In this document: piece by piece, positions 1,001-34,307 of the stretch
Layout of the letters: each line of letters begins with the position of its first letter
Position numbering within the stretch: the stretch's first letter is position 1
From: Candidatus Humicultor tengchongensis
GTDB taxonomy: Bacteria > Sysuimicrobiota > Sysuimicrobiia > Sysuimicrobiales > Humicultoraceae
Direction: 5' to 3'
Assembly: GCA_031459715.1 (NCBI GenBank)
Contig: JAVKIA010000004.1
Coordinates: 2,755-66,754, forward strand
Length of the DNA: 64,000 nt
Translations under genes and position numbers: made by a program
The notes under the pieces: generated by a model
The model's input: only the letters and a program-made list of their open reading frames with translations
Told to the model about the DNA's origin: nothing
Databases searched by the model: none

Positions 1001-1158
1001 TTCCCTCTTCCGACGGAGCGGCGCTCCGTCAACCTGCGCCGTTCACTGGGGTATTCCCGGCCGGGTGGCCGATTCCTCCCGGGGAGTTATCTCAGCGTGG
1101 ATGTGGCGCATCACCGTGCCCGTTGACGACTTGCCCGTAGGGAACCGCCTCGCCTGGG

Positions 1159-13968: not shown

Positions 13969-15005
13969 CGCTTCGAGCGGGAGCGCGCGCGCCGGGTCGC
14001 CAGCTCAGCCAGGCGCCGTTGCAGCGCCTCAAATCCGGCGAAAAGCTCGGGCAGCCGCCGCAGGTATGCCTGCACCCGCAGCTCCTGCCGGTGCGGCCAG
14101 GCCGGGAAGCCGGAGACGACCTGCCGCGCGGGGATGTTCTTGGTCACCCCGGCCTGAGCCAGCACCGTGGCTCCGGCGCCGATGCGGGTGTGGTCCCGCA
14201 CTCCCACCTGCCCGGCCAGGACAGCGCCGTCCTCCACGGTCACGCTGCCGGCCAGGCCCACCTGGCCGGCGATCAGCACCCCGCGGCCGATGCGCACGTT
14301 GTGGGCCACCTGCACCAGGTTGTCGATCTTGGTGCGCGCCCCGATGCGCGTCTCCCCCAGGGTGCCCCGGTCCACCGCGGTGTTGGCTCCGATCTCCACG
14401 TCGTCCTCAATGACCACCCGGCCCAGGTGAGGGATCTTCACCGGCCCGCTCTCGCCCTGCGCATAGCCAAACCCGTCGCTACCCACCACCACCCCCGGGT
14501 GAAGGATGACGCGGTGGCCGAGGACGCAGCCGGCGCGCACGGTCACCTGGGGACCGAGGATACAGTCCTCCCCCACACGCGCGTCGCTCTCCACCACGGT
14601 TCCGGCCAGCAGCGCGCTGCGCGCCCCCACGCGCGCCCGATCGCCAAGCACCACGTGCGGCCCCACGTGCACGCCGTCCCCCAGGACGACATCGGTCCCC
14701 AGCACCGCGGTGGGATGGACTCCCGGAGGATAGGCAGGCGCGGGGGAGAAGAGGGCCAGCAGGCGGGCAAAGGCCAGGCGGGCGTTAGCCGCGCGGATCG
14801 CCGGCTTTCGCCCGGGAGGCAGCTCCGCAGGGAGGAGGACGGCGGCAGCGGCGCTGGCCTCGGCCGCGCGCAGGGCGTCGGCATCAGCGGCGTAGACGAT
14901 GGTCCCCGGGCTCGCCGCCTCGGGCTCCCCCACCCCGCTGATCTCCACGGCGGGGTCGCCGGCCAGAGTACCGCCCAGGTGAGTGGCCAGGTCGCCCAGT
15001 CTCAT
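13965..15005 (-). CDS. lpxD: UDP-3-O-acylglucosamine N-acyltransferase LpxD
   Basis: 346 aa with an N-terminal LpxD domain ([25 protein letters not shown]…) followed by extensive hexapeptide repeats. Confidence 0.85.
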
Positions 15006-15011
15006 CGCCGG

Positions 15012-15449
15012 TCACCGCAGTCTGGCGATCACCTCTTCGGTGATGTCGACGGTACGGCCGGGGAGAGCGTACACCACGGGGCTCTTCACCAGCACGGCGC
15101 CCCGCAGCCCTCGCTCCCGAACTATCTGGCCCACCACGTCGCGGATCTCCTTGTTCAGCCGGTCCTCCAGCTCCCCCTTCAGCTGCGCCAGCTCCCGCAG
15201 GTACTGGTTGCGCCGCGCCTCCAGATCCGCGGGGGAGAGCTGCCCTGCTAGCAGCTGCAGATCCAGGGCCATGGCCTTCTCTCGCTCGTCCAGCTGTCGC
15301 TGGTAGGAGAGCGCCCGAACGCTCTCGTTGAGGATGCGGTTTGTGTCTACGAGGGCGAGCCTGCCCCCGCCGCAGGCAGCCAGCCCCACGGCGGCCGAAA
15401 GCAGGAGCACCATGGCCGTGACCATCGAGGTGCGGCGCCGCGCAGGCAC
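15012..15449 (-). CDS. OmpH/Skp-family periplasmic chaperone, possible lipoprotein
   Basis: 145 aa with a signal peptide and an LAAC lipobox-like motif, then an OmpH-like coiled coil (…NESVRALSYQRQLDEREKAMALDLQLLAGQL…). Confidence 0.65.
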   Translation of the reverse strand: MPARRRTSMVTAMVLLLSAAVGLAACGGGRLALVDTNRILNESVRALSYQRQLDEREKAMALDLQLLAGQLSPADLEARRNQYLRELAQLKGELEDRLNKEIRDVVGQIVRERGLRGAVLVKSPVVYALPGRTVDITEEVIARLR

Positions 15450-15453
15450 GGTC

Positions 15454-16563
15454 CTACCGCTTCAGCCGGGCGAGCACCTCGGTGGTGAGGTCCTCGCCCG
15501 TCAGGTTGCTCAGGTAGCGGGTCAGCACTACATCGAAGCCCCGGGCGGCAGCCAGGGCGGCCACCTCGATCTTCACGTCGGAGAGGATCACGTCCTCCAG
15601 GCGGGAGCGCTGCTCGGTGAGCGCCTGCCGCTCTGCCAGGAGCTGCTGCTCCCGCTCCCGCAGCCCCTCCGCATACCGGTTCTGGGCGGCGGCCAGCTGG
15701 CCTTCGGCCAGGCTGAGCAGGCGGCGACGGAAGGCCTCCAGCTGCGCCTCGAAGGCCCGCTGCCTGGCCGTCATCAGGCGTCGTGTCCCGGCCTCCAGCT
15801 CCTGCCTCTTTGCCTCCACCATCCGGGCGAACTCTCGCTCCGCCTCCCGCTGCGCCCTGGCCAGCCGGCCGTTGGCCTCGGCCACGCGGGCCTTCTCGAA
15901 GTCGCGCAGGATCACCTCCACCAGCTCAGCCCTGGCGCGGACCTTGGCATCCCGCTCTGTGAGCAGCCGGTCCAGCTCTTCCGTGAGCTGGCGCAGCTCC
16001 TCCTCCGAGGCCACGCCGATGACGGCCGCCTTCAGCCGCAGGTTGGCGATGGGGAAGCGGTACTCGTCCAGGACCTCGGCCTCATAGCGGCGCAGCTCGG
16101 CACGCAGCTCCGCCGCCCGGGCCTCCACCGCCTGTTTCAACTCCGCGTGTATCTGCGCGCGCAGCCGCTCCAGCTTCGCCGTCTGCTCCTCTCGCAGGGA
16201 AGCGGCGTAGCGCTCCAGGGCGGCCTCCTGCCGCTGCCGCAGGGAAGCCATCTCCGCCTGGAACTCCGCCTCCAGGCGCTTGGCCTGGGTGCGCAGCTGC
16301 GCCTCCAGGCGGTCCTGCAAAAGCGGCGGAGCCTGCGGCGGGACGGCGAGCTGCGCCTCCAGGTCGGCCAGCTTTGTATTCAGGGCGTCCAGCTCCGGCC
16401 AGCGTGGATGCGCCCGTGCCACCCGGTCCACGTCCACGACGCCCACACGCAGCCCCCCCCTGCCTGTGGGCGTCGGCTGCGGCCGGACCGCCGCGCCCTG
16501 AGGCCGACAGCCAGCCGCCCCCAGGAACGCCAGGAGCAGGAACACGGAGAGGCGCCGGAGCAT
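15454..16563 (-). CDS. Long OmpH/Skp-like coiled-coil periplasmic protein (369 aa)
   Basis: Signal peptide MLRRLSVFLLLAFLGAAGC, an OmpH-type N-terminus (VGVVDVDRVARAHPRWPELDALNTKLADLEAQ…) and about 250 aa of Arg/Glu/Ala/Leu-rich coiled coil, with a second OmpH-like C-terminal segment (…VKIEVAALAAARGFDVVLTRY…). Confidence 0.6.
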   Translation of the reverse strand: MLRRLSVFLLLAFLGAAGCRPQGAAVRPQPTPTGRGGLRVGVVDVDRVARAHPRWPELDALNTKLADLEAQLAVPPQAPPLLQDRLEAQLRTQAKRLEAEFQAEMASLRQRQEAALERYAASLREEQTAKLERLRAQIHAELKQAVEARAAELRAELRRYEAEVLDEYRFPIANLRLKAAVIGVASEEELRQLTEELDRLLTERDAKVRARAELVEVILRDFEKARVAEANGRLARAQREAEREFARMVEAKRQELEAGTRRLMTARQRAFEAQLEAFRRRLLSLAEGQLAAAQNRYAEGLREREQQLLAERQALTEQRSRLEDVILSDVKIEVAALAAARGFDVVLTRYLSNLTGEDLTTEVLARLKR

Positions 16564-16567
16564 GCGG

Positions 16568-17047
16568 CTACTTGCCCGCCACCTTCTGGATCACCTGATC
16601 GGTGAGATCCACCCCGCCGAAGAGCACCACCGAGCGCTCCAGGACAATGGCCACCCCCTGCGCCCTGGCTACCTCCTCGATCGCCGCGCGGATCTCCCGG
16701 TCCAGGCCACCGAACAGCTCCTGGCGCTTGGCCAGCACCTGCTGCTGCAGCTGCCGGTCCAGCAGCTGCCGCTGCTCCGCCGTCATCCCCTTGGATCGCT
16801 CCCGGAACTCCCGCTGCTTGGCCGCAAAGAACTCCTGCAGGGCGCGCTCGGAGGCCGCCCGCCGCGGGTGCGCGTCCAGCGCCCGCTGCATGTCCACGAT
16901 GCCGATGGCGAAGCTCTGGCCGAAGGCGGGCACTCCACCTCGGGACAGCGTCCACACCACGGCCGCGACCAGCAGCAGCACTCCCCCGCCGAGGGCGAAC
17001 CACCAGCTCCGCCGCAGCGTCCGTACGCCATCCAGCCGCGTCCTCAC
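16568..17047 (-). CDS. OmpH/Skp-family periplasmic chaperone
   Basis: 159 aa with an N-terminal TM/signal segment, then IGIVDMQRALDAHPRRAASERALQEF…KRQELFGGLDREIRAAIEEVARAQGVAIVLERS, an OmpH signature. Confidence 0.7.
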   Translation of the reverse strand: MRTRLDGVRTLRRSWWFALGGGVLLLVAAVVWTLSRGGVPAFGQSFAIGIVDMQRALDAHPRRAASERALQEFFAAKQREFRERSKGMTAEQRQLLDRQLQQQVLAKRQELFGGLDREIRAAIEEVARAQGVAIVLERSVVLFGGVDLTDQVIQKVAGK

Positions 17048-17128
17048 CTTTCTCCCTCCCTCCTGGGCCGCCGGTAACTACCGGCGGTCAAACACTCCAA
17101 TTGTAGCCGCCGTCAAGGCCGGCCGCAG

Positions 17129-18430
17129 CTACAGGTTGCTGATCAGGCGCACCCAGTACTCGCCCCCCGACCTGCCGACAATCTCGCCGGAGAGGAATTC
17201 GGTGAAGCGGTATCGCACGCTCCCCTCCACCTGCTGGGCCGGCAGCAGGTATGCCAGGCGCACGCTCACATCCGGCCCCACCCGGTAGGTGACGAACCCG
17301 GTGACCTCCCCGGTGTTCAGCGTATAGGCCGCCCCCAGGTCCCAGACCGCATCCGGCGCGTAGCGCAGCCCCAGGTCGTAGCGGGCGGAGAGGGTGTTGG
17401 GCAGCAGCCCCACCTCGGCGAACGTCTCCAGGCGGCCGAAGAGACGGCCGAGGTGGGCCCGCAGTTCCGGACCCGGGGCCCGCGTGCCCACGTTGAGCTG
17501 CGCCTCGACCCGCCCCAGCCAGAGGAGCGAATCGGCCACCACGGTCACATACGTCGTCTCCCCCACGGAGAGGACGGGCCGGGCCACGACGCGGTACTCG
17601 GCCGCAGGTGGATATGCCCGCAATCGCTCTGCCAAAAGCCGCTCCAGCGTTTCGCGCTGCCCCTGGACGAAGGCGACGGGCAGTCCGCGGATGGGCCCGG
17701 CCATGGACAGGACCGCCGGGGCGTGCTGCTCCAGCAGGAGGAACGGGATGGAGCTGGAGCGGAAGCGCACGCCGATGTCCCGCACCACGCGGCCATCGCG
17801 GGGCAGGAGGTCCACATCCACTCGGGCCACCCTCCCCGCCCGCACCCGCGCCGCTCCGCTGAACCCGGGCAACGCCTCCTCTACGGCGCGGCGGACCTCC
17901 TGGGCGACAAGCGGCCCGGCCCAGTCCAGGGACTGCACCGGCAGGCCCACGAGCATTGCCCGCACAGCCGACGCCACCGCCTGCTGCACCGGCTGCAGGA
18001 CCAGGGGGGCCACGGCGGAATCCACGTCGCTGTGCGGGAGGACCTCGACCTCGTGGACCAGCGGCGGTGCGGGGCGCAGGCGCACCGCCACCACGGCGGT
18101 GGGCCCCACCTCCACGCGGGCCTCGGCGACGGTGTAGCCGCCCACCACCCGGTCCACCACTGTGGTCAGCGTGGCCCGCAGCTGCGTCAGGCCCGGACGG
18201 AGCTGGTCCACCGGGCGGCCGACCAGCAACCGCTGCGCCACCGTCTCCACGGTGCTCTGCAGGCGGGCCTGAACCACGGGGGGGACGCCGCCGTCCACGG
18301 CCAGGTGCACTTCCACCGCCTCGACCACCGCGCCGCTGGCTGCGGCCCACGGGACCAGCAGCAGGAGCAGGGCCAGGCTGCAGACCGCTCGCCCGGCCGC
18401 GGCTAGAACGGGTGTCCCAGGTTGAGCCAC
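17129..18430 (-). CDS. Hypothetical secreted/envelope protein immediately downstream of bamA (start uncertain)
   Basis: This is the frame of the 473-aa track ORF 17129..18550, which gives a coherent protein (signal-like AAAGRAVCSLALLLLLVPWAAASG, then Val/Arg/Ala-rich repeats). The overlapping 527-aa ORF 17088..18671 in another frame is compositional junk. A candidate GTG start at 18430 lies 28 nt inside the bamA 3' end. No family assignment. Confidence 0.45.
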   Translation of the reverse strand: MAQPGTPVLAAAGRAVCSLALLLLLVPWAAASGAVVEAVEVHLAVDGGVPPVVQARLQSTVETVAQRLLVGRPVDQLRPGLTQLRATLTTVVDRVVGGYTVAEARVEVGPTAVVAVRLRPAPPLVHEVEVLPHSDVDSAVAPLVLQPVQQAVASAVRAMLVGLPVQSLDWAGPLVAQEVRRAVEEALPGFSGAARVRAGRVARVDVDLLPRDGRVVRDIGVRFRSSSIPFLLLEQHAPAVLSMAGPIRGLPVAFVQGQRETLERLLAERLRAYPPAAEYRVVARPVLSVGETTYVTVVADSLLWLGRVEAQLNVGTRAPGPELRAHLGRLFGRLETFAEVGLLPNTLSARYDLGLRYAPDAVWDLGAAYTLNTGEVTGFVTYRVGPDVSVRLAYLLPAQQVEGSVRYRFTEFLSGEIVGRSGGEYWVRLISNL

Positions 18431-20331
18431 GTCTGGGTCCCGGCGGGGCCAAAGGCGAAGTCCAGGCGGAGCACGCCCAGGGGAGACCTGAAGGCCACGC
18501 CCACGCCGTAGTTGGCCACGAAACCGGGGGTGCTGAGCGCCGTCCCCCACGCCGCCCCGCCGTCGACGAAAACGATGCCGGTGAAGTCCTTGAAGAAGGG
18601 AGCGATGCCGCCAAGCGGCGCGCGGTACTCGACGTTGGCCAGCGCCATGGCGGTACCGCGGTACTGGCCACCGCTGAACCCGCGCAGCGTGGTGGGGCCG
18701 CCCAGGGCGAACAGCTCCTGCCCGGGGATGGCGCCGCTGCCCAGCCCGGCGCCGACCCGCCCCGCGATCAGGGATTCCCCGCCCAGGGGGATGTACTGGA
18801 CGTACTCGGCAAAATACTTCTGGAAGTTGAACTCACTGCCCAGCGGCGGCAGGGCGAACTCCAGGGAGAGCATCTGCCGGCTGCCTCGGGTGGGGTTGAT
18901 GCGGCTGTCCCGCAGGTCCCTGCTCCCGCTTACCGTCACCGACACTGTCCGCCCCGGGGAGAAGAAGGCGGGCGGAGCGCAGGGGTCGGGCGGGCAGGTC
19001 CCGCTGGGGTCGATGGGCAAGGGGGTGATGGCGGCGCGCTCCGAGCGCAGCCGCAGGCTCACGGTGGTGTGGGCGTCCATCGGCCGCATCACCTCAGCCA
19101 GGCTGCCGACCCGCTCCAGGTCGAAGCGGGCCGTCGTCGCCCCCCCGCTGACCTCAGTCTGCGTGGCCACGGTCTGGTAGAGGTTGAGGTCCAGCGAGGT
19201 CTGGTGTGGGTCCAGGAACGGCTCGCGGAAGCTCAGGACGAAGGTGAACTTGGCGGCCTGGGTTGCCGTGGGGGAGAAACCCCGCTCCGCCCTCAGGGCG
19301 ACGGTCTGCGCCCGTCCCCGCCAGTTCCGCTCCCGGTATGCGATCTGCCCCGTCAATCCTTCGGTGGTACTGTAGCCGGCACCGAAGCTGAGCTCGCCGG
19401 TGCGGGCCTCTTTCACTTCGATCTCGATGACGGCGGCCTCGGGGGTGGACCCTGGCTGGGGGCGGGCCTGTACCGACTCGAAGAGGCCCGTCTCGAAGAG
19501 GCGCTGCAGGTCGGCGTTCATCTGCCGCACGTTGAAGACGTCGCCCCGCTGCAGCCGCACATAGCGCCGGGCCACGGCGGGCCGGGTCTTGGTCAGCCCG
19601 CGGAAGACCACATCCTCCACCCGCCCCTCGGCCAGGCGCACGCGGAGCCGGCCGTCGTCCGCGGGGTCCAGCCCGATATCCACCACGCGGGCCAGCACAT
19701 ACCCCCGTTCTTCGTAGAGCTTCTCCACGGCGCGCACCCCGTCGCGGGCGCGCTTCGTGTTCAGCACCTCCCCCATGGGAATGTCCAGGGCCCGGACGAT
19801 ATCCGCCGTGGCGACCACCGTGTTGCCCTGCACCACCACCGCCACCACCCGCGGGTTCTCCACGACCAGGAAGACCACCCGCAGGCCCGCCGGGTCGGTC
19901 TCCACGCGGACGGAGACGTCGGCGAACCATCCCAGGTCTGCAATAGCCTGAACGTCCCGCCGCAGCTGCTCGGGGGTGGGTACATCGCCCACCTTGATGG
20001 TGACCACCGCCAGGATCTGCGCGGTGGGAATGTACCTGTTGCCCACCACCTCAACGGCCGCCACCCGCGGAGATGGCGTGGGTGAAGGGGCCGGTGTGGG
20101 CGATTGCGTCGGCGCCGGTGTGGGTGCAGGGACGGGAGCCGGTGCAGACTCCGGCGCGGGCGAAGGTGGGGGCACGGGCGACGGTGAGGGTACGGGCGAC
20201 GGTGACGGCGCGGGCGATGGCGCCTGCGCGTGGGAGGTGGAAATGATCCCCGGCGCCGCCAGTAGGAACAGCAGGGCGATCAGGGCACAGGACACATGAA
20301 GCGCGCAGCGCCGGCAGAGGAGGACAGGCAT
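18403..20331 (-). CDS. bamA: Outer-membrane protein assembly factor BamA (Omp85) with a Pro/Ala/Ser-rich linker
   Basis: 642 aa, in order: a signal peptide; a 51-aa low-complexity linker (PSPAPSPSPVPSPSPVPPPSPAPESAPAPVPAPTPAPTQSPTPAPSPTPSP); POTRA-like repeats (…VAAVEVVGNRYIPTAQILAVVTIKVGDV…); a beta-barrel with the Omp85 VRGF-like motif (TLRGFSGGQY); and a C-terminal aromatic residue (…WLNLGHPF). Confidence 0.85.
   Translation of the reverse strand: MPVLLCRRCALHVSCALIALLFLLAAPGIISTSHAQAPSPAPSPSPVPSPSPVPPPSPAPESAPAPVPAPTPAPTQSPTPAPSPTPSPRVAAVEVVGNRYIPTAQILAVVTIKVGDVPTPEQLRRDVQAIADLGWFADVSVRVETDPAGLRVVFLVVENPRVVAVVVQGNTVVATADIVRALDIPMGEVLNTKRARDGVRAVEKLYEERGYVLARVVDIGLDPADDGRLRVRLAEGRVEDVVFRGLTKTRPAVARRYVRLQRGDVFNVRQMNADLQRLFETGLFESVQARPQPGSTPEAAVIEIEVKEARTGELSFGAGYSTTEGLTGQIAYRERNWRGRAQTVALRAERGFSPTATQAAKFTFVLSFREPFLDPHQTSLDLNLYQTVATQTEVSGGATTARFDLERVGSLAEVMRPMDAHTTVSLRLRSERAAITPLPIDPSGTCPPDPCAPPAFFSPGRTVSVTVSGSRDLRDSRINPTRGSRQMLSLEFALPPLGSEFNFQKYFAEYVQYIPLGGESLIAGRVGAGLGSGAIPGQELFALGGPTTLRGFSGGQYRGTAMALANVEYRAPLGGIAPFFKDFTGIVFVDGGAAWGTALSTPGFVANYGVGVAFRSPLGVLRLDFAFGPAGTQTWLNLGHPF
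20095..20250 (-). repeat. Short imperfect tandem DNA repeats encoding the BamA Pro/Ala/Ser-rich linker
   Basis: Repeated units such as ggtgagggtacgggcgacggtgacggcgcgggcgatgg are visible on the plus strand. They lie within bamA codons. Confidence 0.6.
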
Positions 20332-20346
20332 CTCGCTGGATACTGC

Positions 20347-21051
20347 CTACCGGCGCTCCCCGCGAAGCGACCGCTCCGCTGCAATGACCAGATCGATGAG
20401 CTCGGCATCGGAGACCAGGGTGGGAGGCGCCGAGGTCAGGGTGGCCGCAGCGGCGGTCCGGGGTGTCGGCGCCGGCCTGGCAGCAGGCCGCATGGAGGGA
20501 CGCCCAACCCGCTTCACCTGCAGGGGCGACGCGACCCGCGCCTGCGGCACCACGCGCGGAATAGGGGCCGCGACGGCCGGCGGGGCAGCCGTCTCCTCCG
20601 GGGTAAGCACCGCCGGCACCAGCGCCAGCATGATGCCCGGCTGCCTGAACCTGACCACAGCGGGCGGGGGAGCCAGCCCGGGAGCCACCTCTACCCGGGT
20701 AGCCAGCAGCGACCGGCCGCCCAGGAGCAGGGCCAGCAGGGCAGCGGCGCCCAGCACCGTCATCACCGCCGGGGAGCGAGGAAGCACCTCCTCCCGTGCA
20801 GGGAAGGTGCGCTCGCGGGCGTGGTGCACCTCCGCTTCGGCCAGCAGCAAGGTGAGGATGCCGCGGGCGAGCCGCCCGTCCGTCACCTCCTGCCTGGCCC
20901 GGGCCAGCCACCGTTCGGCGAAGCCGATGTGGCGCACCAGGTGCTCCTGCGCAGCGTCTCGCTCACTGGCCTGTGATTGCACAGCGCCTCCCTCCTCAAC
21001 GGTAGCAGGCAGGCGAACCTTCCGATAGTTACTATCCGCAGGCGGCGCCAC
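20347..21051 (-). CDS. Putative membrane-anchored anti-sigma factor / hypothetical protein downstream of the sigma factor
   Basis: 234 aa with a cytoplasmic N-terminus, a single TM (VMTVLGAAALLALLLGG) and a Pro/Ala-rich extracytoplasmic tail. It lies 35 nt downstream of the sigma gene in the same orientation. The anti-sigma function is inferred from context only. Confidence 0.4.
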   Translation of the reverse strand: MAPPADSNYRKVRLPATVEEGGAVQSQASERDAAQEHLVRHIGFAERWLARARQEVTDGRLARGILTLLLAEAEVHHARERTFPAREEVLPRSPAVMTVLGAAALLALLLGGRSLLATRVEVAPGLAPPPAVVRFRQPGIMLALVPAVLTPEETAAPPAVAAPIPRVVPQARVASPLQVKRVGRPSMRPAARPAPTPRTAAAATLTSAPPTLVSDAELIDLVIAAERSLRGERR

Positions 21052-21085
21052 TCAATCGCATATCGGCTGCAGCACTCCCGCGCGG

Positions 21086-21715
21086 TCAGGAGGTCTCCGG
21101 CCGCGGCGCCGAGGGGTTCAGCGCAGCCCTGACCCGGGCGATAGCCTGCTTCTGCAGCCGGTAGAAGTGGGAGAGGCTGATACGCAGCGCACCGGCCACC
21201 TGTCGTGGGTCCTGGCGGGTGAGGAACGCCCGCAGGATGGCCCGCTCCCGCCCCGGGAGGTCGGCCACGACCGCCCGGATCTGCTCGTAGAGGACCCGAT
21301 CCTCCACCCGCAGCAGGGAGAGCTCCGCCTCCAGGTCGCCCAGCGCACCCCCCGGCACCAGTTCCTCCGCCAGGAGCTGGTCCAGGGAAAGCTCGCCGGT
21401 GCGGCGGGCGAAGGCGTTGAGCATGCGGCCGCGAATGCGGTAGGCAGCGAAGGTGCTGAAGCGGACCCCGCGGCCCGGGTCGAAGCGCTCCACCGCCTCG
21501 ATCAGGCCCACTGTCCCCTCCTGAATCGTGTCCATCAGGAGCGCCTGCGGCGGACGCAGCTGCATGGCCAGCTTGAAAACCAGCGGCTGGTAAGCCTCGA
21601 TCAGGCGGAGGCGACTGGCCGCATCGCCGCTGCGGTACTGCGCCCACAGCCCTGCCTCCTCATCGGGGCGGAGCAGGTTGACCTTTTGGAGCTCACGCAG
21701 ATACTCCTCAAACAT
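21086..21715 (-). CDS. Sigma-70-family RNA polymerase sigma factor (group-3 / sporulation- or FliA-like size)
   Basis: 209 aa with region 2 (LIEAYQPLVFKLA…DTIQEGTVGLIEAVERFDPGRGVRFSTFAAYRIRGRMLNAF) and a region 4 HTH (RQVAGALRISLSHFYRLQKQAIARVR). Confidence 0.75.
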   Translation of the reverse strand: MFEEYLRELQKVNLLRPDEEAGLWAQYRSGDAASRLRLIEAYQPLVFKLAMQLRPPQALLMDTIQEGTVGLIEAVERFDPGRGVRFSTFAAYRIRGRMLNAFARRTGELSLDQLLAEELVPGGALGDLEAELSLLRVEDRVLYEQIRAVVADLPGRERAILRAFLTRQDPRQVAGALRISLSHFYRLQKQAIARVRAALNPSAPRPETS

Positions 21716-21799
21716 GGCGCGCCTCTGTGCGCCTGTCCTCTCCCGCTTGGGGCGAATTCGTCCGCCCGGGGCGAAATCCTGCGCCCGGGCCCGCCGGAA

Positions 21800-24700
21800 T
21801 CAAAAGCGGAGGGTGTACTGGAGCAGGGCGCCGCTCCGGCCGGCGTTGTCCACGGAGAACGCCAGCATCACGTTGCGCAGGAAGCGCCACTCCAGGGACC
21901 AGACGAAACGGGTCTCCTGCTCGAAGATGGTGGTCAGCCGCAGGTAGAGGTCGCGCACCAGCAGCCGGCCCACGCGCAGTTGCAGCGGCCGGGCGAAGTC
22001 GTACTGCACGGTGAACTCGCCGAGCCCCAGAGCGCGGGCGATGGCCGCCTCCACCCCGCCGAACAGCGCCCGCCCCAGCTCGGCCCGCAGCAGCGCCTGC
22101 ACGTCGGCACCTGGCTCTGCCACCGCGCCACCGGCCAGTAGCCCGACGATCTGCTCCCGACTGTGTGGGGGATCCGACCGCAGGACCACCCGGTCGACGA
22201 TCTCTTCGGGGAAGACCTGCCGCGCTTCCAGGAAGACCTTGGTGGTGCTGCCGTCCGCCAGCAGGAGGTCCGTCTCGGCATCCAGCGAGATCAGGGGGCG
22301 CATCCCCAGCTGCGGGAGGAAACGAGCTTCCCCTTCGCGCAGGGTGAAGGTGCGACCGAACACGGTCACCGCTCCCCGTTGCGCCGTCAACCGTCCGGTG
22401 ACGCTGGGCTGGCGTAGGGTCCCGCCCACGGAGAGCGTATCTCCCGGGGCAAGCTCCACGCGCATCCGCCCCAGGTGCACGGTCAGGTCCTCCCCGCTGG
22501 TCAGGCGCAGGTCGCGCAGGCGCAGGTCCGGGCCCCGGGAGGCGGCCTGCCGCCCTGGCGCGGGCAGCAGCCCCAGGGCGTCCAGGTCGCCCCGCTTCAC
22601 CGTCACCTCCCCGGTCAGCTCGGGCGGGGCCTGCGCACCGGTGAGGGATCCGGTGAGGACGAGGTCGGCATCCACCGCCCCGGTGAAGAACGGCGGCGCC
22701 TCGATCCGGGCGTCGCGCGCCCGCACCGCCAGCCGCTCCACCCGGTCCGGTCGGAAGTGGGCGATGGCCACAGACCCCGTGGCCTCCAGCCTCCCCTCGC
22801 CCAGGCGGGCAGTGAAGGATGAGAGCGAGAGGCGATCCTGGCTGAAGCTGATCCCGGCCTGCACCGCCTCCAGCGGGGGGTTCAGGCCGCGCAGGCGGAT
22901 GTGCCCGTCACGCACGGTCATCCCGCCGCTCATTACCGGGCGGCCGGGGGTCCCTGAGAGGAGCACCTGCCCCTCCAGCCTGCCGGTGGACTCCTGCACC
23001 GGGGGGAGGAGCAGCGCCAAGATGCTGAGGTCGGCCTGCACCAGGGAGACTTCAAAGCGCATGGGCCGTTCGGCCAGGACCCCGCGCCCCGGGCCAAGAG
23101 GGATGACCCCCACCCCCTTGACCCGGTGCCCGTCCTGGCTGAGCAGCGCCTGCTCCACGTGGAGCTGCCCGTCCCGGTAGAAGGCGTTCGCCACCAGCGA
23201 GTCGAACCGCAGGCCGTTGACGCTGCCGCGGCGCACGTCCAGGGACAGCCCGACCTCCGGGTCCTGCCAGCGGCCGTTGATCTGCGTGGTGAAGGTGAGC
23301 GTGCCGGCCAGCGGCCGCTCCGGGCGCAGCAGCGGCCGGAGCAGCGCCAGGTTCAGGTCGGTGCCCCCGACCTCCAGCTGGCTATCCCCGTGCAGTACCA
23401 CCTGCCCCCGCGCAGCGAAGATCCCCTCTCCGGAGCGCCCGCGCAGCCTGTCCACCCTGACCACGTCGTTGCGGAAGCTGAGCCCGACGTCCACTTCATC
23501 GATGGGCTGGTCGCCCAGCCTACCCCGGGTCAGGCGCGCCTGCAGCGCCGCCGACGGGCGGGCCCGCGTCCCCTGCACCGTGACGATGCCGTCGAGGCGC
23601 CCATCCAGCGGGACCGGCGCCCGCAGCCGCCCCAGGGAGAGCAGCGTGGCCAGGCTGCCGCGGGAGACCTCACCGTGCAGGTCAAGCACAGGGGGGCGCA
23701 ACCCCAGGATCCCGCGGACGGTGTATGTGCCCTCGCCCTGGGAGAGCGTGACGGGCTCGAGGGCCAGCCGGCCAGAGGCCCAGCGCACGACGCCGTCGGC
23801 GCGGTCGAACGGCTGCCGGTTCAACACCAGGTCCCGCGCCGAAAACGCGGCCACTACCGCCGGATCAGCGGCGGTGCCCTCGACGCGCCCCTGCAGGTCC
23901 AGGTGCCCTGCCATCTGGACCACCTCAGCGGGCAGCGCGGTCAGGTGCTTCAGGTCCAGGTCCCGCACGGCGAAGCTGAGGCTCAGGGCTCCCGTCCGAT
24001 CCACAGTGCCGCGCGCCGTGAGCACGGAGTCCCCCACGCGGGCGCGTAGCGCCTCCAGGGTCAGCGCTCCACCCTGCCAGCGAAACGTGGCCGCGGCTTC
24101 GTCTACCCGCTGCCTCTGGACGCTGCCCTCGAGCAGGGTCACCCGGCCGCTGGCCAGGGGCCGGGTCACCGTTCCTCCGACGGTGAGCCGGCCGGAGAGG
24201 CGGCCGGTGAGGTGCAGCGGCACGGCGGCGGAGCGGATCAGGCTGGCTGCGGGGATGCCCTCTGCCTGAACCGTGAGTGCCACGGAAGATGGGTCTTTCC
24301 ATCGCACCGTTCCCGACACCAGGTAGGTCCCCCTCCCCTCCCGCAGCACCAGGCCGGGCGTGGCCAGGGCGTGACGGGACACCCGCAGCGGCCCCTGTGC
24401 GCTGTCGAACTCCAGCGAGGCCAGGGTCCCGGGGCCAGAGAGGACGGTGCCGTTGAACACTGGCTCGGACCGCGTCCCGGTTACCCTCCCGGCAGCCTCC
24501 ACCGTCGCCTGCAGGCGCGGAGGCGCCCCGATCTGGCGAGCGACCTCCCGCAGGTCCAATCCGGTGGCCGCGGCGTCGACATCCAGTATGCCCCGGCGCG
24601 AGACGGAGCCTGCTGCACGCAGCACCGTCTTGCCGCGGCCGGCGACGAGATACGGGAAGGCGACCTCGGCGTCCGCGTACCACCCGCCGGCGCGCAGGTA

Positions 24701-26263
24701 GTCCACGTGCAGCCCGCCGGCCTGGCCCGGGCCCATCCTCCCCGCAGCCTCCGCGAACAGTGCCTTGGGGGCGCGGCCCAGCACGACGCTCCCCTGCAGC
24801 CGACCGCTCAGGGGGAGGCGCAGCCCGGCACGGGCCAGCAGCTCCGGCGGGAGGTTCTCGACCTCCGCCGCGGCCAGCAGCGTCCCGCCGCTGCCCATGG
24901 CCAGGCGCAGCTCGCCCTGCAGGCGGGCGTCTCCTGCCACCGCGGTGACGTCCCGCAGGACGAGGAGGTCGCCCAGGAGGGAAAGCCCCGCCGACTCCAC
25001 GGCCACGGGCTGTCGGTTCACCGCGCCACGAGCCCTGATGATCGTCCCCTGAATCAGCGGAGCGGACCAGGAGCCGGTGATGCGCACGTCCGCGCCCGTG
25101 GTGCCCTCAAGGCGGACTCGCGCTGTGGGGAAGAGGAGGCGCTGCACCGCGGCCAGGTCCAGCCGCGGCGAGGTCACCACCAGGTCCAGCCGGCGGCCGA
25201 AGCGCAACGCCGCTTCCCCGCGTAGACGTAGCCACGACCCATCGACCTTAAGGCTCAGAGCGTCGGTAGCCACACGGTCGTTGTCCACACGGAGCAGGCC
25301 GGACATCCCGTACAGGCGGGTCCGCTGCGGCAGCAGCGTTGCCGCCCCGTCCACAAGGCGCACGCTGCCCCGGTAGTCCAGAGTACGCCTCCCTCCCCAC
25401 GGCGCCCTCAGCAGGTGGAGTTGCGCGTCCGCTGCCCCCCCGGTGAAGACCAGGGCTGGCGTGCGCACGAGGTACGGCCCCCACTGTACCAGGGGGGCGC
25501 CCTCCGCCCGCAGGTCGGCGTCCAGCACGCCGCGGTCGAGGAGGTACCTCCCCTGCAAGGTGACCGGCGTGCGCCTGCCCGTGTGCAGGCTGACCAGAGC
25601 CGCCTCCAGCTCCACGGTCGGCGCCAGGCGGAAGTCTGCCCGGCCGCTGACCTGGACGAAACGCGCGCGGAACGGATACGGCGGCCCGGAGTGGTCGGTG
25701 AGAGTAACCCTCCCATCCCGCACGACGACCAGAGGCGCCAGGCCCGCGCCCTTCATGGCCGGGGCACCCGGCTGGGCTACCAGGTCCAGCACGTTCCACC
25801 GCCCGGCGGAGGAGATCTCCAGCCAGATCTCCGGACGGACCAGGGTGATGGTGGTGATGCTGCGCAGGACACCGCGGCGGCGCAGCAGGTCGCCCAGCAG
25901 GGCGGCGGGACGGAAGGAGACGACGATCTGCGCGGCCGTAATGATGGCACCCTCGGCCGTGGGCTCTCTGCGGCCGACGGTCACCCCTTCAAGGACCACG
26001 CCTCGCAGCGGGTCGCCGCGCAGGGCGCCGATCTGCACCGGCCGCTGGAACTGGCGCGCGGCCGCCGCCTGCACCGCCCGGCGGGCCTGCTCGTGCAGCC
26101 GCCCCGAAGTCGCGACGGCGTACAGGACGGCTCCGCCCGCGGTTAGGAGGACAACGGCCAGGACGAAGGATCGACGAAACATGGGCGGCTTGGCTCCACC
26201 AGACACTATGCCCTGCTGTCCTGAAAACGGAACTCTGCGCCCGCCTTTCAGAAAAACGGCCAC
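21800..26263 (-). CDS. tamB: TamB/AsmA-like translocation-and-assembly module protein (1487 aa)
   Basis: Giant ORF with an N-terminal TM anchor (FRRSFVLAVVLLTAGGAVLYAV), a long repetitive beta-rich body and a DUF490-like C-terminus (…FTVQYDFARPLQLRVGRLL…SLEWRF). It lies directly upstream of the sigma gene, anti-sigma candidate and bamA, on the same strand. Confidence 0.8.
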   Translation of the reverse strand: MAVFLKGGRRVPFSGQQGIVSGGAKPPMFRRSFVLAVVLLTAGGAVLYAVATSGRLHEQARRAVQAAAARQFQRPVQIGALRGDPLRGVVLEGVTVGRREPTAEGAIITAAQIVVSFRPAALLGDLLRRRGVLRSITTITLVRPEIWLEISSAGRWNVLDLVAQPGAPAMKGAGLAPLVVVRDGRVTLTDHSGPPYPFRARFVQVSGRADFRLAPTVELEAALVSLHTGRRTPVTLQGRYLLDRGVLDADLRAEGAPLVQWGPYLVRTPALVFTGGAADAQLHLLRAPWGGRRTLDYRGSVRLVDGAATLLPQRTRLYGMSGLLRVDNDRVATDALSLKVDGSWLRLRGEAALRFGRRLDLVVTSPRLDLAAVQRLLFPTARVRLEGTTGADVRITGSWSAPLIQGTIIRARGAVNRQPVAVESAGLSLLGDLLVLRDVTAVAGDARLQGELRLAMGSGGTLLAAAEVENLPPELLARAGLRLPLSGRLQGSVVLGRAPKALFAEAAGRMGPGQAGGLHVDYLRAGGWYADAEVAFPYLVAGRGKTVLRAAGSVSRRGILDVDAAATGLDLREVARQIGAPPRLQATVEAAGRVTGTRSEPVFNGTVLSGPGTLASLEFDSAQGPLRVSRHALATPGLVLREGRGTYLVSGTVRWKDPSSVALTVQAEGIPAASLIRSAAVPLHLTGRLSGRLTVGGTVTRPLASGRVTLLEGSVQRQRVDEAAATFRWQGGALTLEALRARVGDSVLTARGTVDRTGALSLSFAVRDLDLKHLTALPAEVVQMAGHLDLQGRVEGTAADPAVVAAFSARDLVLNRQPFDRADGVVRWASGRLALEPVTLSQGEGTYTVRGILGLRPPVLDLHGEVSRGSLATLLSLGRLRAPVPLDGRLDGIVTVQGTRARPSAALQARLTRGRLGDQPIDEVDVGLSFRNDVVRVDRLRGRSGEGIFAARGQVVLHGDSQLEVGGTDLNLALLRPLLRPERPLAGTLTFTTQINGRWQDPEVGLSLDVRRGSVNGLRFDSLVANAFYRDGQLHVEQALLSQDGHRVKGVGVIPLGPGRGVLAERPMRFEVSLVQADLSILALLLPPVQESTGRLEGQVLLSGTPGRPVMSGGMTVRDGHIRLRGLNPPLEAVQAGISFSQDRLSLSSFTARLGEGRLEATGSVAIAHFRPDRVERLAVRARDARIEAPPFFTGAVDADLVLTGSLTGAQAPPELTGEVTVKRGDLDALGLLPAPGRQAASRGPDLRLRDLRLTSGEDLTVHLGRMRVELAPGDTLSVGGTLRQPSVTGRLTAQRGAVTVFGRTFTLREGEARFLPQLGMRPLISLDAETDLLLADGSTTKVFLEARQVFPEEIVDRVVLRSDPPHSREQIVGLLAGGAVAEPGADVQALLRAELGRALFGGVEAAIARALGLGEFTVQYDFARPLQLRVGRLLVRDLYLRLTTIFEQETRFVWSLEWRFLRNVMLAFSVDNAGRSGALLQYTLRF

Positions 26264-26392
26264 CCGCGGGCGCCGGGTTCGGGCCGGCGCAGCACGAAGG
26301 GACGGAGGCGACCGCCCCCGTCCCTAGTGTCCGCAGGCTAACCTTCCCGCCCTCGCCGCCCGGGCGGGGCCGTGCCCGGGCGGCCCGCCGCC

Positions 26393-28225
26393 TCAGCGCA
26401 CATGAATGGGGACCCGGAACTCCCCCTGGATCACCCAGTTGGTCCGGATCAACCGGCCGGCGAAGACGTCGAACTTAGTGAACTCCGCTCCGGTCGCCGG
26501 CAGGCCGAAGGGGACCAGGCGGATCAGGATCTGGTTGTTGGTCCCCAGGCTCTCAAAGATCTCCACCGCCTCCTCCAGGGTGTCCCCGGGGAAGGGGGGC
26601 TGCTCGGTGAGCAGGTCTCGTACGATCACGTCTTCCGGGCTGGTTCCAGTCAGGTCGATCCCCGCCGAGCTGACGAGGAGCACCGCCGGGCCCCGCGGGT
26701 AATTCCGCGGCACAGGGACCTCGATGACCCGAGAGACCTGCTGGTCCTGCTGGTAGGGGCGGACGGTGATCCGGACGCGGATGGTCCCTCCCGGGTCGAC
26801 CTCCCGTGTCTCCGCCTCAACGTTGGTGATCTCCGCTGTCTCCCGCTTGCGGGAGAGGGTCATCTCCACCTTCAGGTCAAACGGGTCCAGGTCGGCGAAG
26901 GGATTGAAGAAGAGGAACTGGACTGCCGTGGAGATGTCCAGTACTGAGGCCAGGGCCACGTCCTGCTGGCTGTAGAAGATATTCTCCCGGGAGATGACTC
27001 CGGGCAGCCGCCTGGCGCGCACCGCCATCTTTACCCGGGCCGACCCCTCCCCCTGGACCTGGTCGCGTCCCCGCTCTGCGGCGACGAAGGCCACCAGGGG
27101 CGCGAAGAGGCGCACCAGATCGGCGCGGCGCACCACCTGGGCCGCCCGGCTCACCGTCTTTCCTGAGTCGGCGTCGTTGACGGTGACTCGGACGGTGAAC
27201 ATGCGGGGGAACTTCCCCACCAGGCCGCGGATGCCTGGCCCGCGGTCCTCGTCGATCTGCCCGACCAGCGGTCCCAGGTTGCCCTCCAGGAAGGGACGCT
27301 GCAGCGTCTGCACCACGGTGACGATCTCGGCGGTGGTCAGGCCGTAGGCCACCGACCCCAGGTTCTCCCAGGGGTGACCGCAGATGAGCAGCTTGCTCCC
27401 CACCCGCAGCGTCGTGGTGCAGATGCCGCCGAACTCCACGTCGCCCAGCACCTGGAGGATCCCCACCGGCGAGCCGGCGCGGATCTGCGCCGCCTCCCCG
27501 GCGGCCTGCCCTCCGCCATACTGCACCAGCGGCCGCTGGGCCAGCCGCTCGCCCATCACCTTCTGCAGGAGGGTGAAGGCGCGGGGGGTCAGGCCTCCGG
27601 CCAGGGTCACCGGCTGCGCCGGGAGGAAGGCCAGGGTGCCGGGCAGTGCCGCCGCCTGGCGGGCCTGGGCGGGAGTGCGGGCCACCACCACCCGGTGGAC
27701 CGGCTTCCCGTCCACCACCAGCGGGGTGGTGGGGGAGAAGACGGTGGGCCAGGGAGCGGCTGCAGCCTGCGGCTGCTCCAGCAGCGGCAGCATGTACTCG
27801 ATGGGGGTGCCCAGCCCCAGGTCCTTCCTGGTCTGGAAGAGATAGCTGGCGCTGTGGGCGCCCACCAGCTTCCCGTTGATGTACAAGGGGCTGCCGCTCA
27901 TCCCCGCAGCGGTGCCGCCTGTCTGCTCCATCAGGGGGCCGTAGGTCCGGTAGAGAATCAGGTGCTTCACCGGGATGGCGCCGCCACCTCCCGCCAGCAG
28001 CGCCATTACCTCGAAGTTGAACTCCGCGATCTGCGGGCTCTTCACCGTGGTCCGGCCCACGCCCCGCATCCCCGGCTTGATCTCCGCCACCTTCATGATC
28101 GGGGGCAGCCCCTCCTGGGCGCTGCCCACCGCCGCCGGCGGCAGGAGGACCGCCAGGGCCAACCCGCATACCATGACCGCTCGCCACACACGTGTCACGT
28201 CCCTCTCTCCTCTCTCACTCCCCAC
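26393..28225 (-). CDS. SpoIVB-like peptidase S55 family protein (610 aa), secreted
   Basis: Signal peptide, then the S55/SpoIVB-type serine motif GMSGSPLYINGKLVG, and a long C-terminal extension. It is the gene immediately upstream of tamB. Confidence 0.6.
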   Translation of the reverse strand: MGSERGERDVTRVWRAVMVCGLALAVLLPPAAVGSAQEGLPPIMKVAEIKPGMRGVGRTTVKSPQIAEFNFEVMALLAGGGGAIPVKHLILYRTYGPLMEQTGGTAAGMSGSPLYINGKLVGAHSASYLFQTRKDLGLGTPIEYMLPLLEQPQAAAAPWPTVFSPTTPLVVDGKPVHRVVVARTPAQARQAAALPGTLAFLPAQPVTLAGGLTPRAFTLLQKVMGERLAQRPLVQYGGGQAAGEAAQIRAGSPVGILQVLGDVEFGGICTTTLRVGSKLLICGHPWENLGSVAYGLTTAEIVTVVQTLQRPFLEGNLGPLVGQIDEDRGPGIRGLVGKFPRMFTVRVTVNDADSGKTVSRAAQVVRRADLVRLFAPLVAFVAAERGRDQVQGEGSARVKMAVRARRLPGVISRENIFYSQQDVALASVLDISTAVQFLFFNPFADLDPFDLKVEMTLSRKRETAEITNVEAETREVDPGGTIRVRITVRPYQQDQQVSRVIEVPVPRNYPRGPAVLLVSSAGIDLTGTSPEDVIVRDLLTEQPPFPGDTLEEAVEIFESLGTNNQILIRLVPFGLPATGAEFTKFDVFAGRLIRTNWVIQGEFRVPIHVR

Positions 28226-28333
28226 GCTTCCGCGCCGGGTTGGAAAAAAATTCGGGAAGAGAGGACCTCTCCCCTACGCCGCGGACCTGTGCCCCTGGAT
28301 GTCACACCACCGTCACCCCGGCGGGAAACTTTC

Positions 28334-28642
28334 TCACCTGGGCCGCAGGTGGGCGACCACCATCCCCCGTTCCCGGATCTGCTGCCCCGGGCGCACCAGC
28401 ACCTCCACCACCGTGCCGTCAGCGGGCGCGCGGGCGGCAACCGCCCTGCCCACCAGGGCACGGACGTAGACCAGGGGGTCGCCGTCGCGCACCTCCTGTC
28501 CGGGCCGGACCAGGCCGTCCGCCAGCACCTCGCCCGTGAGGGTGGCCCGCACCTCCAGCACACCCGCCGCAGCCGCAGCGGCCGAGGCCAGCGGCAGGAG
28601 CAGCGAAACGCCAAGGACAAGGATGCGCACCGGTCTCCTCAT
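28334..28642 (-). CDS. Small secreted protein with a biotin/lipoyl-attachment-like (HlyD-type hybrid) beta domain
   Basis: 102 aa with a signal peptide (MRRPVRILVLGVSLLLPLASAAAAAAG), then …GEVLADGLVRPGQEVRDGDPLVYV…APADGTVVEVLVRPGQQIRERGMVVAHL, a lipoyl-like hammerhead pattern. Confidence 0.5.
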   Translation of the reverse strand: MRRPVRILVLGVSLLLPLASAAAAAAGVLEVRATLTGEVLADGLVRPGQEVRDGDPLVYVRALVGRAVAARAPADGTVVEVLVRPGQQIRERGMVVAHLRPR

Positions 28643-28648
28643 CCTCCA

Positions 28649-33346: not shown

Positions 33347-33548
33347 CTGTGGAAGGCCTTTACGGGAACCTCCTGCCGCACAGAAGTTCTTGACCCCCCG
33401 GAGCAATCCTTCCCCAGCCCGCCGCCCCCCGGCGGCAGGTCTTCCGCCAAGCCTGACGCCGCCGCAGCACCGGCACCGCTTGCCGCCGGCGGGAAATCGG
33501 CTATCCGCCCGATAGCGGAGCCTTACCGCCATTTCTAAACTCCACGGC

Positions 33549-34090: not shown

Positions 34091-34307
34091 GCAGGACCGG
34101 GGCGAAGGGCCCCTGGCCAGGATCCCGGTAAGGAAGCGCTTTGGGCACAGGCAGAAGCGTGGCTGGGGGGGCAGGCTTCGATCCTGCGCTGCCGGAGTCA
34201 AAGTCCGGTGTCCTCCCGATTAGACGACCCCCCAGCGCACCTGTATTGTCCTGAGGAGCGGGAAGCCGGTCAACCCCTGGGGGCCCGGTGGGGCGGGCCC
34301 GTCCTCA

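Follow-up and report, generated by a model that had tools for sequence, protein, structure and literature searches.

A sigma factor gene followed by a co-translated gene for a single-pass membrane protein is the classic layout in extracytoplasmic function (ECF) and RsgI-type systems. Class I anti-sigma domains form a 3+1-helix bundle and class II domains, such as those of CnrY and NepR, are two-helix clamps (PMC6101532). In E. coli, the core regulon of sigma-E includes YaeT/BamA and Skp (PMC1312014), and a 2026 review of the machinery for beta-barrel assembly (BAM) discusses sigma-E for E. coli only, with BamA of the Terrabacteria described as being without known partners (PMC13067283). Here we analysed a stretch of 64,000 nucleotides (nt) from Candidatus Humicultor tengchongensis (contig JAVKIA010000004.1, hereafter the window; G+C content 71%), in which a sigma-70-family factor and a membrane protein, here called the partner, are encoded between tamB and bamA. 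An original prediction had placed a sigma factor of 209 amino acids (aa) and a single-pass membrane protein between these two genes on the same strand, which our coordinates and gene calls confirmed, and had taken the source for a diderm Firmicute, when its lineage is CSP1-3/Sysuimicrobiota. On balance we lean, by a modest degree, towards reading the two proteins as a sigma/anti-sigma-type signalling pair built into the ancestral outer membrane (OM) biogenesis operon of the Terrabacteria. The genes and motifs at the centre of the locus are:

21800-26263, minus strand: TamB, an AsmA-like lipid-transport protein (PF04357, E=2e-31, with DUF748 and AsmA)
21754-21782, minus strand: P1, promoter-like motif of two blocks, GCAGGATTT-N11-GACGAATTC, between tamB and sigma
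21086-21715, minus strand: sigma-70-family factor, 209 aa (Pfam Sigma70_r2, TIGR02937)
21028-21061, minus strand: P2, motif of two blocks, ATGyGA-N18-GGATAGTAAC, between sigma and partner
20347-20982, minus strand: partner membrane protein, 211 aa, no database match
18403-20331, minus strand: BamA (Omp85), open reading frame (ORF) of 642 aa (Omp85 E=1e-37, three POTRA domains)

The gaps between these genes measure 84 nt (tamB-sigma), 103 nt (sigma-partner) and 15 nt (partner-bamA), and a scan of window positions 13000-29500 detected no terminator-like site between the four genes, nor any 3' of P1. The partner ORF is readable from 21051 (20347-21051, minus strand), with a GTG at 20982 lying 6-7 nt past GAGGAGGGAGG. 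We take this GTG as the real start because a GGAGG ribosome-binding site precedes it and its 211-aa product is identical to an annotated protein (P0121) present in GCA_031459065, GCA_031459305 and GCA_031458875, assemblies filed at NCBI under Armatimonadota. The third-position GC of the sigma gene was 0.88. Searches of the sigma/partner region in the window and in four other loci found no Rfam families.

The arrangement was invariant across distant lineages. Our CSP1-3 set comprised 23 distinct loci, made up of 21 species-representative loci recovered by scanning a genome collection with a partner profile, ANGP1 loci and the window itself, and the order tamB-sigma-partner-bamA was present in all of them (23/23). 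As far as the contigs reach, each of these loci reads (S55)-TamB-sigma-partner-BamA-Hyp473-OmpH x3-LpxD. More distant partners were found in Methylomusa anaerophila, Anaerovibrio sp. and Acidaminococcales, and in the Methylomusa and Anaerovibrio loci the pair lies within the run MlaEFD-TolC-TamB-sigma(210-215 aa)-partner-BamA-hyp433/446-OmpH-x-OmpH-LpxD. The same core order was observed in a second ANGP1/'Ca. Segetimicrobium' lineage (L032, L033) and in three low-GC lineages (L034-L036). A metagenome scan with a low-GC partner profile added 80 further loci (L037-L116), 79 of them scorable. Wherever there was room to see it, the sigma gene lay directly upstream of the partner (75/75) and BamA was the next conserved gene downstream (60/60) in these low-GC metagenomic loci. 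Conservation in the OM loci of diderm Firmicutes, proposed as a check in the original prediction, is thereby borne out, by Methylomusa and Anaerovibrio as well as by the 79 low-GC loci.

The partner never occurred without the sigma gene in about 105 loci with room upstream, and TamB was directly upstream of sigma in all loci extending far enough. In many loci 0-30 nt separate the stop codon of sigma from the start of the partner, or the two genes overlap (as in L024), with a 4-nt overlap in L032 and a 3-nt gap in L033, and the distance from the partner stop to the bamA start is always 9-41 nt. The locus tags of TamB and BamA in Veillonella parvula follow directly on one another (Vpar_0526, Vpar_0527; PMC5491611), so sigma and partner appear jointly absent there and appear to have been lost together; the same cluster still has an S55-domain protein (Vpar_0521) and three skp genes (PMC5491611). 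Within CSP1-3, sequence identity ranged over 56-95% for sigma, 44-69% for BamA and 33-85% for TamB.

The sigma factor is a member of the sigma-70 family in which regions 2 and 4 are both present. In Pfam, Sigma70_r2 (PF04542) matched with E=4e-19, whilst region 1.2 (PF00140, E=0.039) and the C-terminal helix-turn-helix were weak matches, and the protein scored 77.9 bits against the NCBIfam model TIGR02937 (cut-off 42.9), covering residues 37-199. An AlphaFold2 (AF2) model built on 31 homologues showed an N-terminal helix, a typical sigma-2 domain and a four-helix sigma-4 domain at a predicted local distance difference test score (pLDDT) of 80-96, with residues 108-132 below 50. Hence the domain boundaries are region 1.2 at aa 2-10, sigma-2 at aa 17-106, a disordered linker at aa 108-132 and sigma-4 at aa 128-199; the linker (~25 residues) is variable and rich in indels among orthologues. 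There is no sigma-3 domain, either as a Sigma70_r3 match in Pfam or in the AF2 model. This is a two-domain factor retaining region 1.2, because an N-terminal helix, sigma-2 and sigma-4 are present and sigma-3 is not, and it is group-3-like by sequence and ECF-like by architecture. The two-domain build is that of group 4/ECF factors, but the region 1.2 helix is present too (the weak PF00140 match, which aligns with region 1.2 of RpoS and SigA). Region-2 scores were best against RpoS, RpoD, RpoH and FliA, above RpoE, and the best PDB sequence matches were to regions 1.2-2 of SigA and RpoS. The label 'group-3-like' in the original prediction therefore holds for the sequence of region 2 but not for the missing sigma-3 domain and the disordered linker.

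The factor scored far below every cut-off of the specific NCBIfam models for RpoS, RpoD, RpoH, FliA/WhiG, SigB/F/G, SigE, SigK and RpoE, as did seven orthologues from different lineages, and none of the FliA, SigB, SigF and SigG clades suggested for classification by hidden Markov model fitted. FliA/WhiG identity was rejected at 63 bits against a cut-off of 189.6 (TIGR02479) and 67 against 201 (NF005413), with region 2 alone aligning, and the expectation that a FliA-like sigma beside an unconserved partner would overturn the prediction did not materialise on either count. SigK (57 against 252 bits), SigE (52 against 339-349) and SigBFG (65 against 234) were rejected likewise. Orthology to SigH was also rejected, as identity to B. 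subtilis SigH was 25% over region 2 only (88 residues) and the SigH models of NCBIfam were not reached; the B. subtilis query was itself confirmed by 409 bits against NF006148. Foldseek searches with the sigma model matched SigA, RpoS, RpoH, SigH and FliA about equally and so do not discriminate between classes. Many family members carry the JGI/KEGG label 'RNA polymerase sporulation-specific sigma factor', and SigK and SigE were the only curated models to align over the full length. However, the protein starts directly at region 1.2 and hence has no pro-sequence.

The sigma factors of the Negativicutes were 37-42% identical to the window sigma from end to end and have the signatures RLIEAYQPLVFK, MD.IQEGTVGLIEAVE and SH.YRLQKQ in common with it, which by sequence makes them clear orthologues. 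Judged by these scores and alignments, the sigma factor forms an unclassified subfamily that fits no curated family (not FliA, SigH, SigE/K or RpoE). One metagenomic protein (P0251, 236 aa) joins region 1.2, region 2 and the linker of the sigma factor to helix 2 and the transmembrane (TM) segment of the partner, the junction lying at a short AQ.W string common to both proteins; its most likely origin is a deletion or a chimeric assembly, not a natural fusion.

The partner is a conserved family by its alignments, and one without a Pfam model. A word-indexed search yielded 47 homologues, whose alignment shows five parts: an N-terminal conserved block (HIGFAERWLARARQEV..G..ARG.LTLLLAEAEVHHARE), then a hydrophobic segment followed by the juxtamembrane motif VVRF.Q..GS.LALV, a variable stretch rich in Pro and Ala, and a conserved C-terminus (LVSDADLIDLVLAAERSLR). 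The AF2 model is mostly disordered (predicted template modelling score 0.29) and contains the following elements:

20806-20979, minus strand: N-terminal two-helix domain, aa 2-59 (helices aa 2-34 and 38-59, pLDDT 84-90)
20716-20772, minus strand: TM helix, aa 71-89 (aa 72-89 in the AF2 model)
between the TM helix and the C-terminal helix, minus strand: disordered Pro/Ala-rich linker (AF2)
20359-20409, minus strand: C-terminal helix, aa 192-208 (pLDDT about 85)

Conservation follows this architecture, with mean pairwise identities within CSP1-3 of 0.71 for the N-terminal hairpin, 0.29 for the TM segment, 0.25 for the linker and 0.75 for the C-terminal helix. Residues W25, R28, E51 and R56 of the N-domain are invariant. 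The C-terminal helix is common to CSP1-3 and Negativicutes and has been lost in the L032/L033 (ANGP1) subfamily, where the hairpin and TM helix are kept. Several partners of this lineage (P0248, P0250, P0254, P0257, P0264, P0268) end in an aromatic residue (..SPTF, ..SSTF, ..SAAF, ..APAW), and these ends resemble outer membrane protein C-terminal signals and PDZ-binding tails. A single hydrophobic segment was present in all 17 partners compared (Kyte-Doolittle mean 1.6-2.7, about residues 61-94). In 16/17 of them, drawn from across the lineages, lysine and arginine residues on the N-terminal flank at least equalled those on the C-terminal flank. By this positive-inside rule the predicted topology is N-in, C-out, which indicates a single-pass type II membrane protein.

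As the original prediction had stated, the partner has no recognisable anti-sigma domain. It had no match in Pfam, NCBIfam or PDB sequences, and none of the 17 family members matched an anti-sigma model at E<=1. The class I domains (zf-HC2, RseA_N, RskA and RsiW type) were unmatched in 17/17 partners, and AF2 shows just two helices ahead of the TM segment. Weak matches to DUF4398 in 3/17 partners (E=0.07) were treated as noise. The domain-model search of the 17 members recognised no stress-sensor domain (PDZ, RseB-like). Foldseek against the PDB returned generic helical hairpins only, all with E>0.3, an uninformative search given the mostly disordered model. Among 1.84 billion representatives, a profile built on the N-terminal hairpin alone matched 229 clusters, in which the match nearly always fell in residues 1-50 of proteins of 170-240 aa. 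As modelled, the architecture of the partner suits a membrane anti-sigma factor, which is its putative role.

The spacer between tamB and sigma contains a conserved promoter-like motif. The core of P1 (AGGAYTT-N11-15-CGAA) had a single match in the window, against 0.03 expected by chance, and a scan with a position weight matrix scored 29 bits at P1 and 15.7 at the next best site. Both blocks and their 11-12-nt spacing are kept in 17/23 CSP1-3 loci, with divergent flanks. The pattern occurs exactly once, and always in the tamB-sigma spacer, in 20 matching loci; eight loci had no match. Similar sites lie in the same spacer of low-GC loci, namely GAAGGAATA-12-GTAGAACCT in L036 and GGAGGATAT-11-CACGAACTT in L034, where the pattern occurs 1-3 times per 12-20 kb. 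The position of P1 upstream of the sigma gene suggests autoregulation. On the opposite strand, a match to the sigma-70 consensus (TTGACC-16-GATACT, 21678-21705, plus strand) lies antisense within the first sigma codons; it is the only one in 16.5 kb and is probably due to chance (~0.1 expected).

A second motif, P2, precedes the partner gene. Its blocks and spacing are kept, with diverging flanks, in each of the eight loci with a sigma-partner spacer of ~100-150 nt in the thermophilic clade of CSP1-3, and in L008 it reads as a -35 GTGACT and a -10 GATAGT separated by 17 nt. P2 may be a housekeeping-type promoter for partner-bamA. Similar GGATAyT boxes were seen before the sigma gene in L032 and L033. 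In the low-GC loci (L037-L116) the sigma-partner spacer is typically 160-200 nt long and has a strongly conserved 3' block, CCAgGAyTATAtAT.TGTGgTTATAATAGGGGTG, with a variable hairpin upstream of it (for example around 5103-5270 in L039). Here the pattern AGGAyT-N14-16-[GT]A[AT]T occurred in 15/51 spacers (shuffled mean 0.6, maximum 3), at 22x its density in whole loci. The block is ambiguous between a promoter for this sigma factor and part of a TTnCCA-18-TATAAT housekeeping-type promoter. A simple promoter reading of the TATAAT is disfavoured because it abuts the ribosome-binding site, and the block could represent one promoter, two overlapping promoters or an operator.

From linkage and architecture we infer a feedback module in which the cytoplasmic two-helix domain of the partner would bind the sigma factor and hold it at the inner membrane. 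The periplasmic tail and its conserved helix would report the state of OM assembly, either through cleavage or through binding to a component of the envelope. Inactivation of the partner under stress would then release the sigma factor, allowing it to read P1 and transcribe from the AGGAyTT-N13/14-CGAA site just upstream of its own gene. The P1 transcript would also carry partner, bamA, hyp473, the three skp genes and lpxD, and this reach is proposed because no terminator-like site follows P1 in the scanned stretch; to go beyond lpxD is to extrapolate. This would amount to a self-limiting loop by which the capacity for OM assembly is raised, the role filled by sigma-E/RseA in E. coli. We favour this sigma/membrane anti-sigma reading because of the invariant linkage, the stop/start overlaps and the apparent joint absence in Veillonella. 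It also draws on the cytoplasmic helical N-domain and single TM segment of the partner, with the N-domain kept where the periplasmic helix is lost, on the sigma factor being better conserved than its neighbours BamA and TamB, on the conserved P1 motif, on the likeness of a predicted two-helix domain to class II anti-sigma domains and on the sigma-E regulon of E. coli as a precedent.

Several observations weigh against this feedback module. No known anti-sigma family was matched by the partner in Pfam, NCBIfam or PDB sequences, with 17 members searched. A structural role in the envelope would likewise agree with the periplasmic C-terminal helix of the partner, as conserved as the hairpin, and with its unvarying place next to bamA. 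The matrix scan found no second strong P1-type site in the window, hence no regulon beyond the operon is visible. P1 is not universal, being absent in L032 and L033, and there is no tamB-sigma spacer to hold it in L031 and L035 and almost none in most Negativicutes-like loci. In those Negativicutes-like loci a related AGGAyT box was found in the sigma-partner spacer instead, in only 15-26/51 spacers, and its promoter reading is ambiguous. Furthermore, P1 could be read by a different sigma factor, because it agrees at 17/18 positions with the published sigma-H-type consensus (-35 RNAGGAWWW, -10 RNNGAATWW; PMC8510167). The original prediction had called for a look at promoter motifs upstream of bamA and lpxD, and in the window no P1-type site lies directly before bamA, lpxD or any cluster gene other than sigma, so control of these genes would have to come through co-transcription from the site upstream of sigma.

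A different role for the partner would be that of an accessory to BamA or TamB anchored in the inner membrane, its tail and C-terminal helix docking onto the POTRA domains of BamA, TamB or Skp, and its adjacency to sigma reflecting no more than a shared operon. The short and constant distance to bamA, the conserved C-terminal helix found in both CSP1-3 and Negativicutes, and the lack of resemblance to any known anti-sigma domain all fit this explanation, as does the 2026 review in stating that BamA of the Terrabacteria functions with no known lipoprotein partners and that there may be factors as yet unknown (PMC13067283). However, the family-defining and most conserved part of the partner is a 60-aa cytoplasmic domain, which would be superfluous in a periplasmic accessory, and the ANGP1 subfamily dispenses with the C-terminal helix whilst keeping the hairpin and TM helix. 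The overlapping or abutting sigma and partner genes in many loci, and a partner that is never found without sigma, also argue against it, and we regard an accessory role as fairly unlikely. Alternatively, the sigma factor could be a constitutive, dedicated factor for the OM cluster, or the partner a tether or activator that positions transcription at the membrane, without stress sensing. The sigma gene is indeed very highly conserved inside an operon of essential genes, it follows tamB directly without a promoter of its own in most Negativicutes-like loci, and the partner has no recognisable PDZ or RseB-like sensor. Yet a sigma gene with a co-translated single-pass protein bearing a cytoplasmic N-domain is the classic anti-sigma layout (PMC6101532), and the absence of P1-type sites before the other cluster genes of the window also speaks against a dedicated factor. 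We consider this second explanation improbable.

It is far less probable still that the sigma factor is orthologous to one of the known alternative sigmas (FliA, SigH or SigE/SigK), its position in the OM cluster being meaningless. The sporulation-specific labels, the full-length alignments to SigK and SigE, the fit of P1 to the sigma-H consensus and a length and lack of sigma-3 shared with the B. subtilis SigH model (210 columns in Foldseek) would speak for such an orthologue. The curated models for FliA/WhiG, SigK, SigE and SigBFG nevertheless all stayed far below their cut-offs, identity to SigH is low and confined to region 2, a pro-sequence is missing, and FliA, SigH and SigE/K do not show such constancy of place between tamB and bamA in distant lineages.

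The pair is part of an uninterrupted minus-strand run, S55 peptidase-tamB-sigma-partner-bamA-hyp473-skp x3-lpxD, which continues past LpxD with LpxC, LpxA, LpxB, LptB, LptF/G and a DUF3084 protein. The neighbouring genes are:

26393-28225, minus strand: S55 (SpoIVB-like) peptidase, 610 aa, first gene of the operon (PF05580, E=1e-7)
17129-18550, minus strand: Hyp473, 473 aa, directly 3' of bamA, no Pfam or NCBIfam match
16568-17047, minus strand: OmpH/Skp, first of three genes (Pfam)
15454-16563, minus strand: OmpH/Skp, second gene (Pfam)
15012-15449, minus strand: OmpH/Skp, third gene (Pfam)
13965-15005, minus strand: LpxD (Pfam)
12166-13968, minus strand: 600-aa ORF between LpxD and LpxC, good coding statistics, no Pfam match
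1159-2088, minus strand: DUF3084 protein, at the far end of the lipopolysaccharide/Lpt gene run

A terminator-like hairpin lies at 28254-28274, just upstream of the S55 gene, and hyp473, the three skp genes and lpxD are likely co-transcribed with the sigma/partner pair. Antunes et al. 2016 tabulate a 'DUF3084' gene (supplementary table) among the members of the OM cluster conserved in diderm Firmicutes, and since the window has one too, it carries the same ancestral OM cluster. The BamA ORF from 20331 begins with MPVLLCRRCALHVSCALIALLFLLAAPGIISTSHA and encodes a signal peptide, then a Pro-rich linker of SPAPSPSPVP type ahead of POTRA1. In the deposited metagenome-assembled genomes BamA is annotated with 553 aa, a start that is too late by 89 codons, and a spurious opposite-strand ORF of 50-57 aa is called in the 'gap' left by the short BamA. 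BamA is directly followed by a Hyp473 homologue of about 430-470 aa in CSP1-3, in Negativicutes and in the low-GC lineages (there 433-446 aa). The homologue is absent from the L032/L033 lineage and, by locus-tag order, from V. parvula, and this protein may be a component of OM assembly not yet characterised. The 600-aa ORF is present in close relatives of the window and absent from the ANGP1 loci L004-L007, the Negativicutes locus L031 and the second ANGP1 lineage (L032), in which LpxC or an acyltransferase follows LpxD. Elsewhere in the window, a cobalamin riboswitch was detected at 829-1051 (minus strand, 79.6 bits), as was a tRNA gene at 34163-34234 (minus strand). The tRNA overlaps the 5' end of a GlmU-like ORF (31988-34201), and the GlmU-like gene must therefore start further downstream.

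The S55 peptidase, its domain N-terminal, heads the operon upstream of TamB in CSP1-3 and recurs in the L031 and L036 clusters and, with two copies, in that of L033, and it is a speculative candidate for a site-1 protease acting on the partner. We also considered a much broader proposal, in which the pair would be an ancestral envelope-homeostasis circuit of double-membraned Terrabacteria that predates the split between Negativicutes and CSP1-3. The partner would be a proteolysed anti-sigma factor of a new class, triggered in the periplasm by the S55 peptidase, making the circuit the missing counterpart of sigma-E/RseA beyond the Proteobacteria and an evolutionary relative of the SpoIVB-sigma-K (mother-cell sigma) checkpoint in endospore formers. 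In this full form we think it an improbable proposition.

No reference to the pair appears in the study of the OM cluster by Antunes et al. 2016 and its supplementary list of genes, in the V. parvula papers on the OM proteome and on Mla/TamB, or in the 2026 BAM review, and the two CSP1-3 genome papers mention neither sigma factors nor the outer membrane. The pair is therefore absent from the literature searched in full text, although an earlier mention in other work on Terrabacterial envelopes is possible. What appears to be new is the unclassified sigma subfamily, the partner domain without a Pfam model and the fixed position in the BamA operon, pairs of the sigma/anti-sigma type being already known. 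The regulation of OM biogenesis in double-membraned Terrabacteria (Negativicutes, Halanaerobiales, Limnochordia, CSP1-3 and others) is a gap that the pair could fill, and its place between tamB and bamA, the same in all loci we examined from very distant lineages, makes it a concrete candidate regulator. If the sigma/anti-sigma reading is true, both the sigma subfamily and the anti-sigma domain would be new, and the BamA operon would have, built into it, a functional counterpart to sigma-E/RseA. The pair would also provide a further pair of marker genes for the history of the ancestral OM cluster, including its loss in lineages such as Veillonella.

Compared with described systems, the locus has points in common with several and coincides with none. 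The window sigma is like B. subtilis sigma-H (Spo0H) in its length of about 210 aa, the lack of sigma-3, an end-to-end Foldseek alignment with the SigH model and the fit of P1 to the promoter consensus. It differs in its low sequence identity, limited to region 2, and in leaving the SigH models unreached. R96 and T100 of SigH were reportedly implicated in -10 recognition by Daniels and colleagues in 1990, and the aligned residues in the window sigma are G96 and N100. SigH is not known to have a membrane partner, and its gene adjoins secE-nusG. The SpoIVB-SpoIVFB-pro-sigma-K system offers another parallel, a speculative one, as an S55/SpoIVB-family peptidase is here clustered with a SigE/K-like minimal sigma factor and a membrane regulator (PMC5491611). 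Unlike sigma-K, the window sigma has no pro-sequence, no homologues of SpoIVFA, BofA or SpoIVFB were seen in the loci, and, since V. parvula has an S55 gene in a cluster without the sigma pair, the peptidase is not strictly tied to that pair.

CnrY is a small membrane-anchored protein, as is the partner. The resemblance to class II anti-sigma factors (CnrY/CnrH, NepR/EcfG) extends to the sigma-facing part of the partner, predicted as two helices of about 55 aa (PMC6101532). In contrast to these factors, the partner extends into the periplasm with a long tail that ends in a conserved helix, its cognate sigma factor is not ECF, its AF2 monomer is a closed hairpin and not a clamp, and sequence and profile searches detected no similarity to the class. 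Sigma-E/RseA is likewise unrelated in sequence, with RseA_N unmatched and the RpoE models far from their cut-offs, and differs in lacking region 1.2, whereas the window sigma has it and most resembles groups 1-3 in region 2. No rseB or rseC genes are present here, and the pair sits within the biogenesis operon and not at a separate locus. Even so, both systems consist of a small alternative sigma factor followed by an N-in single-pass protein with a cytoplasmic sigma-binding domain (predicted in our case) and a periplasmic tail. Both would share autoregulation of the sigma gene, which for the window is suggested by P1, and an output that includes bamA and skp (PMC1312014), here located in the operon of the sigma factor itself.

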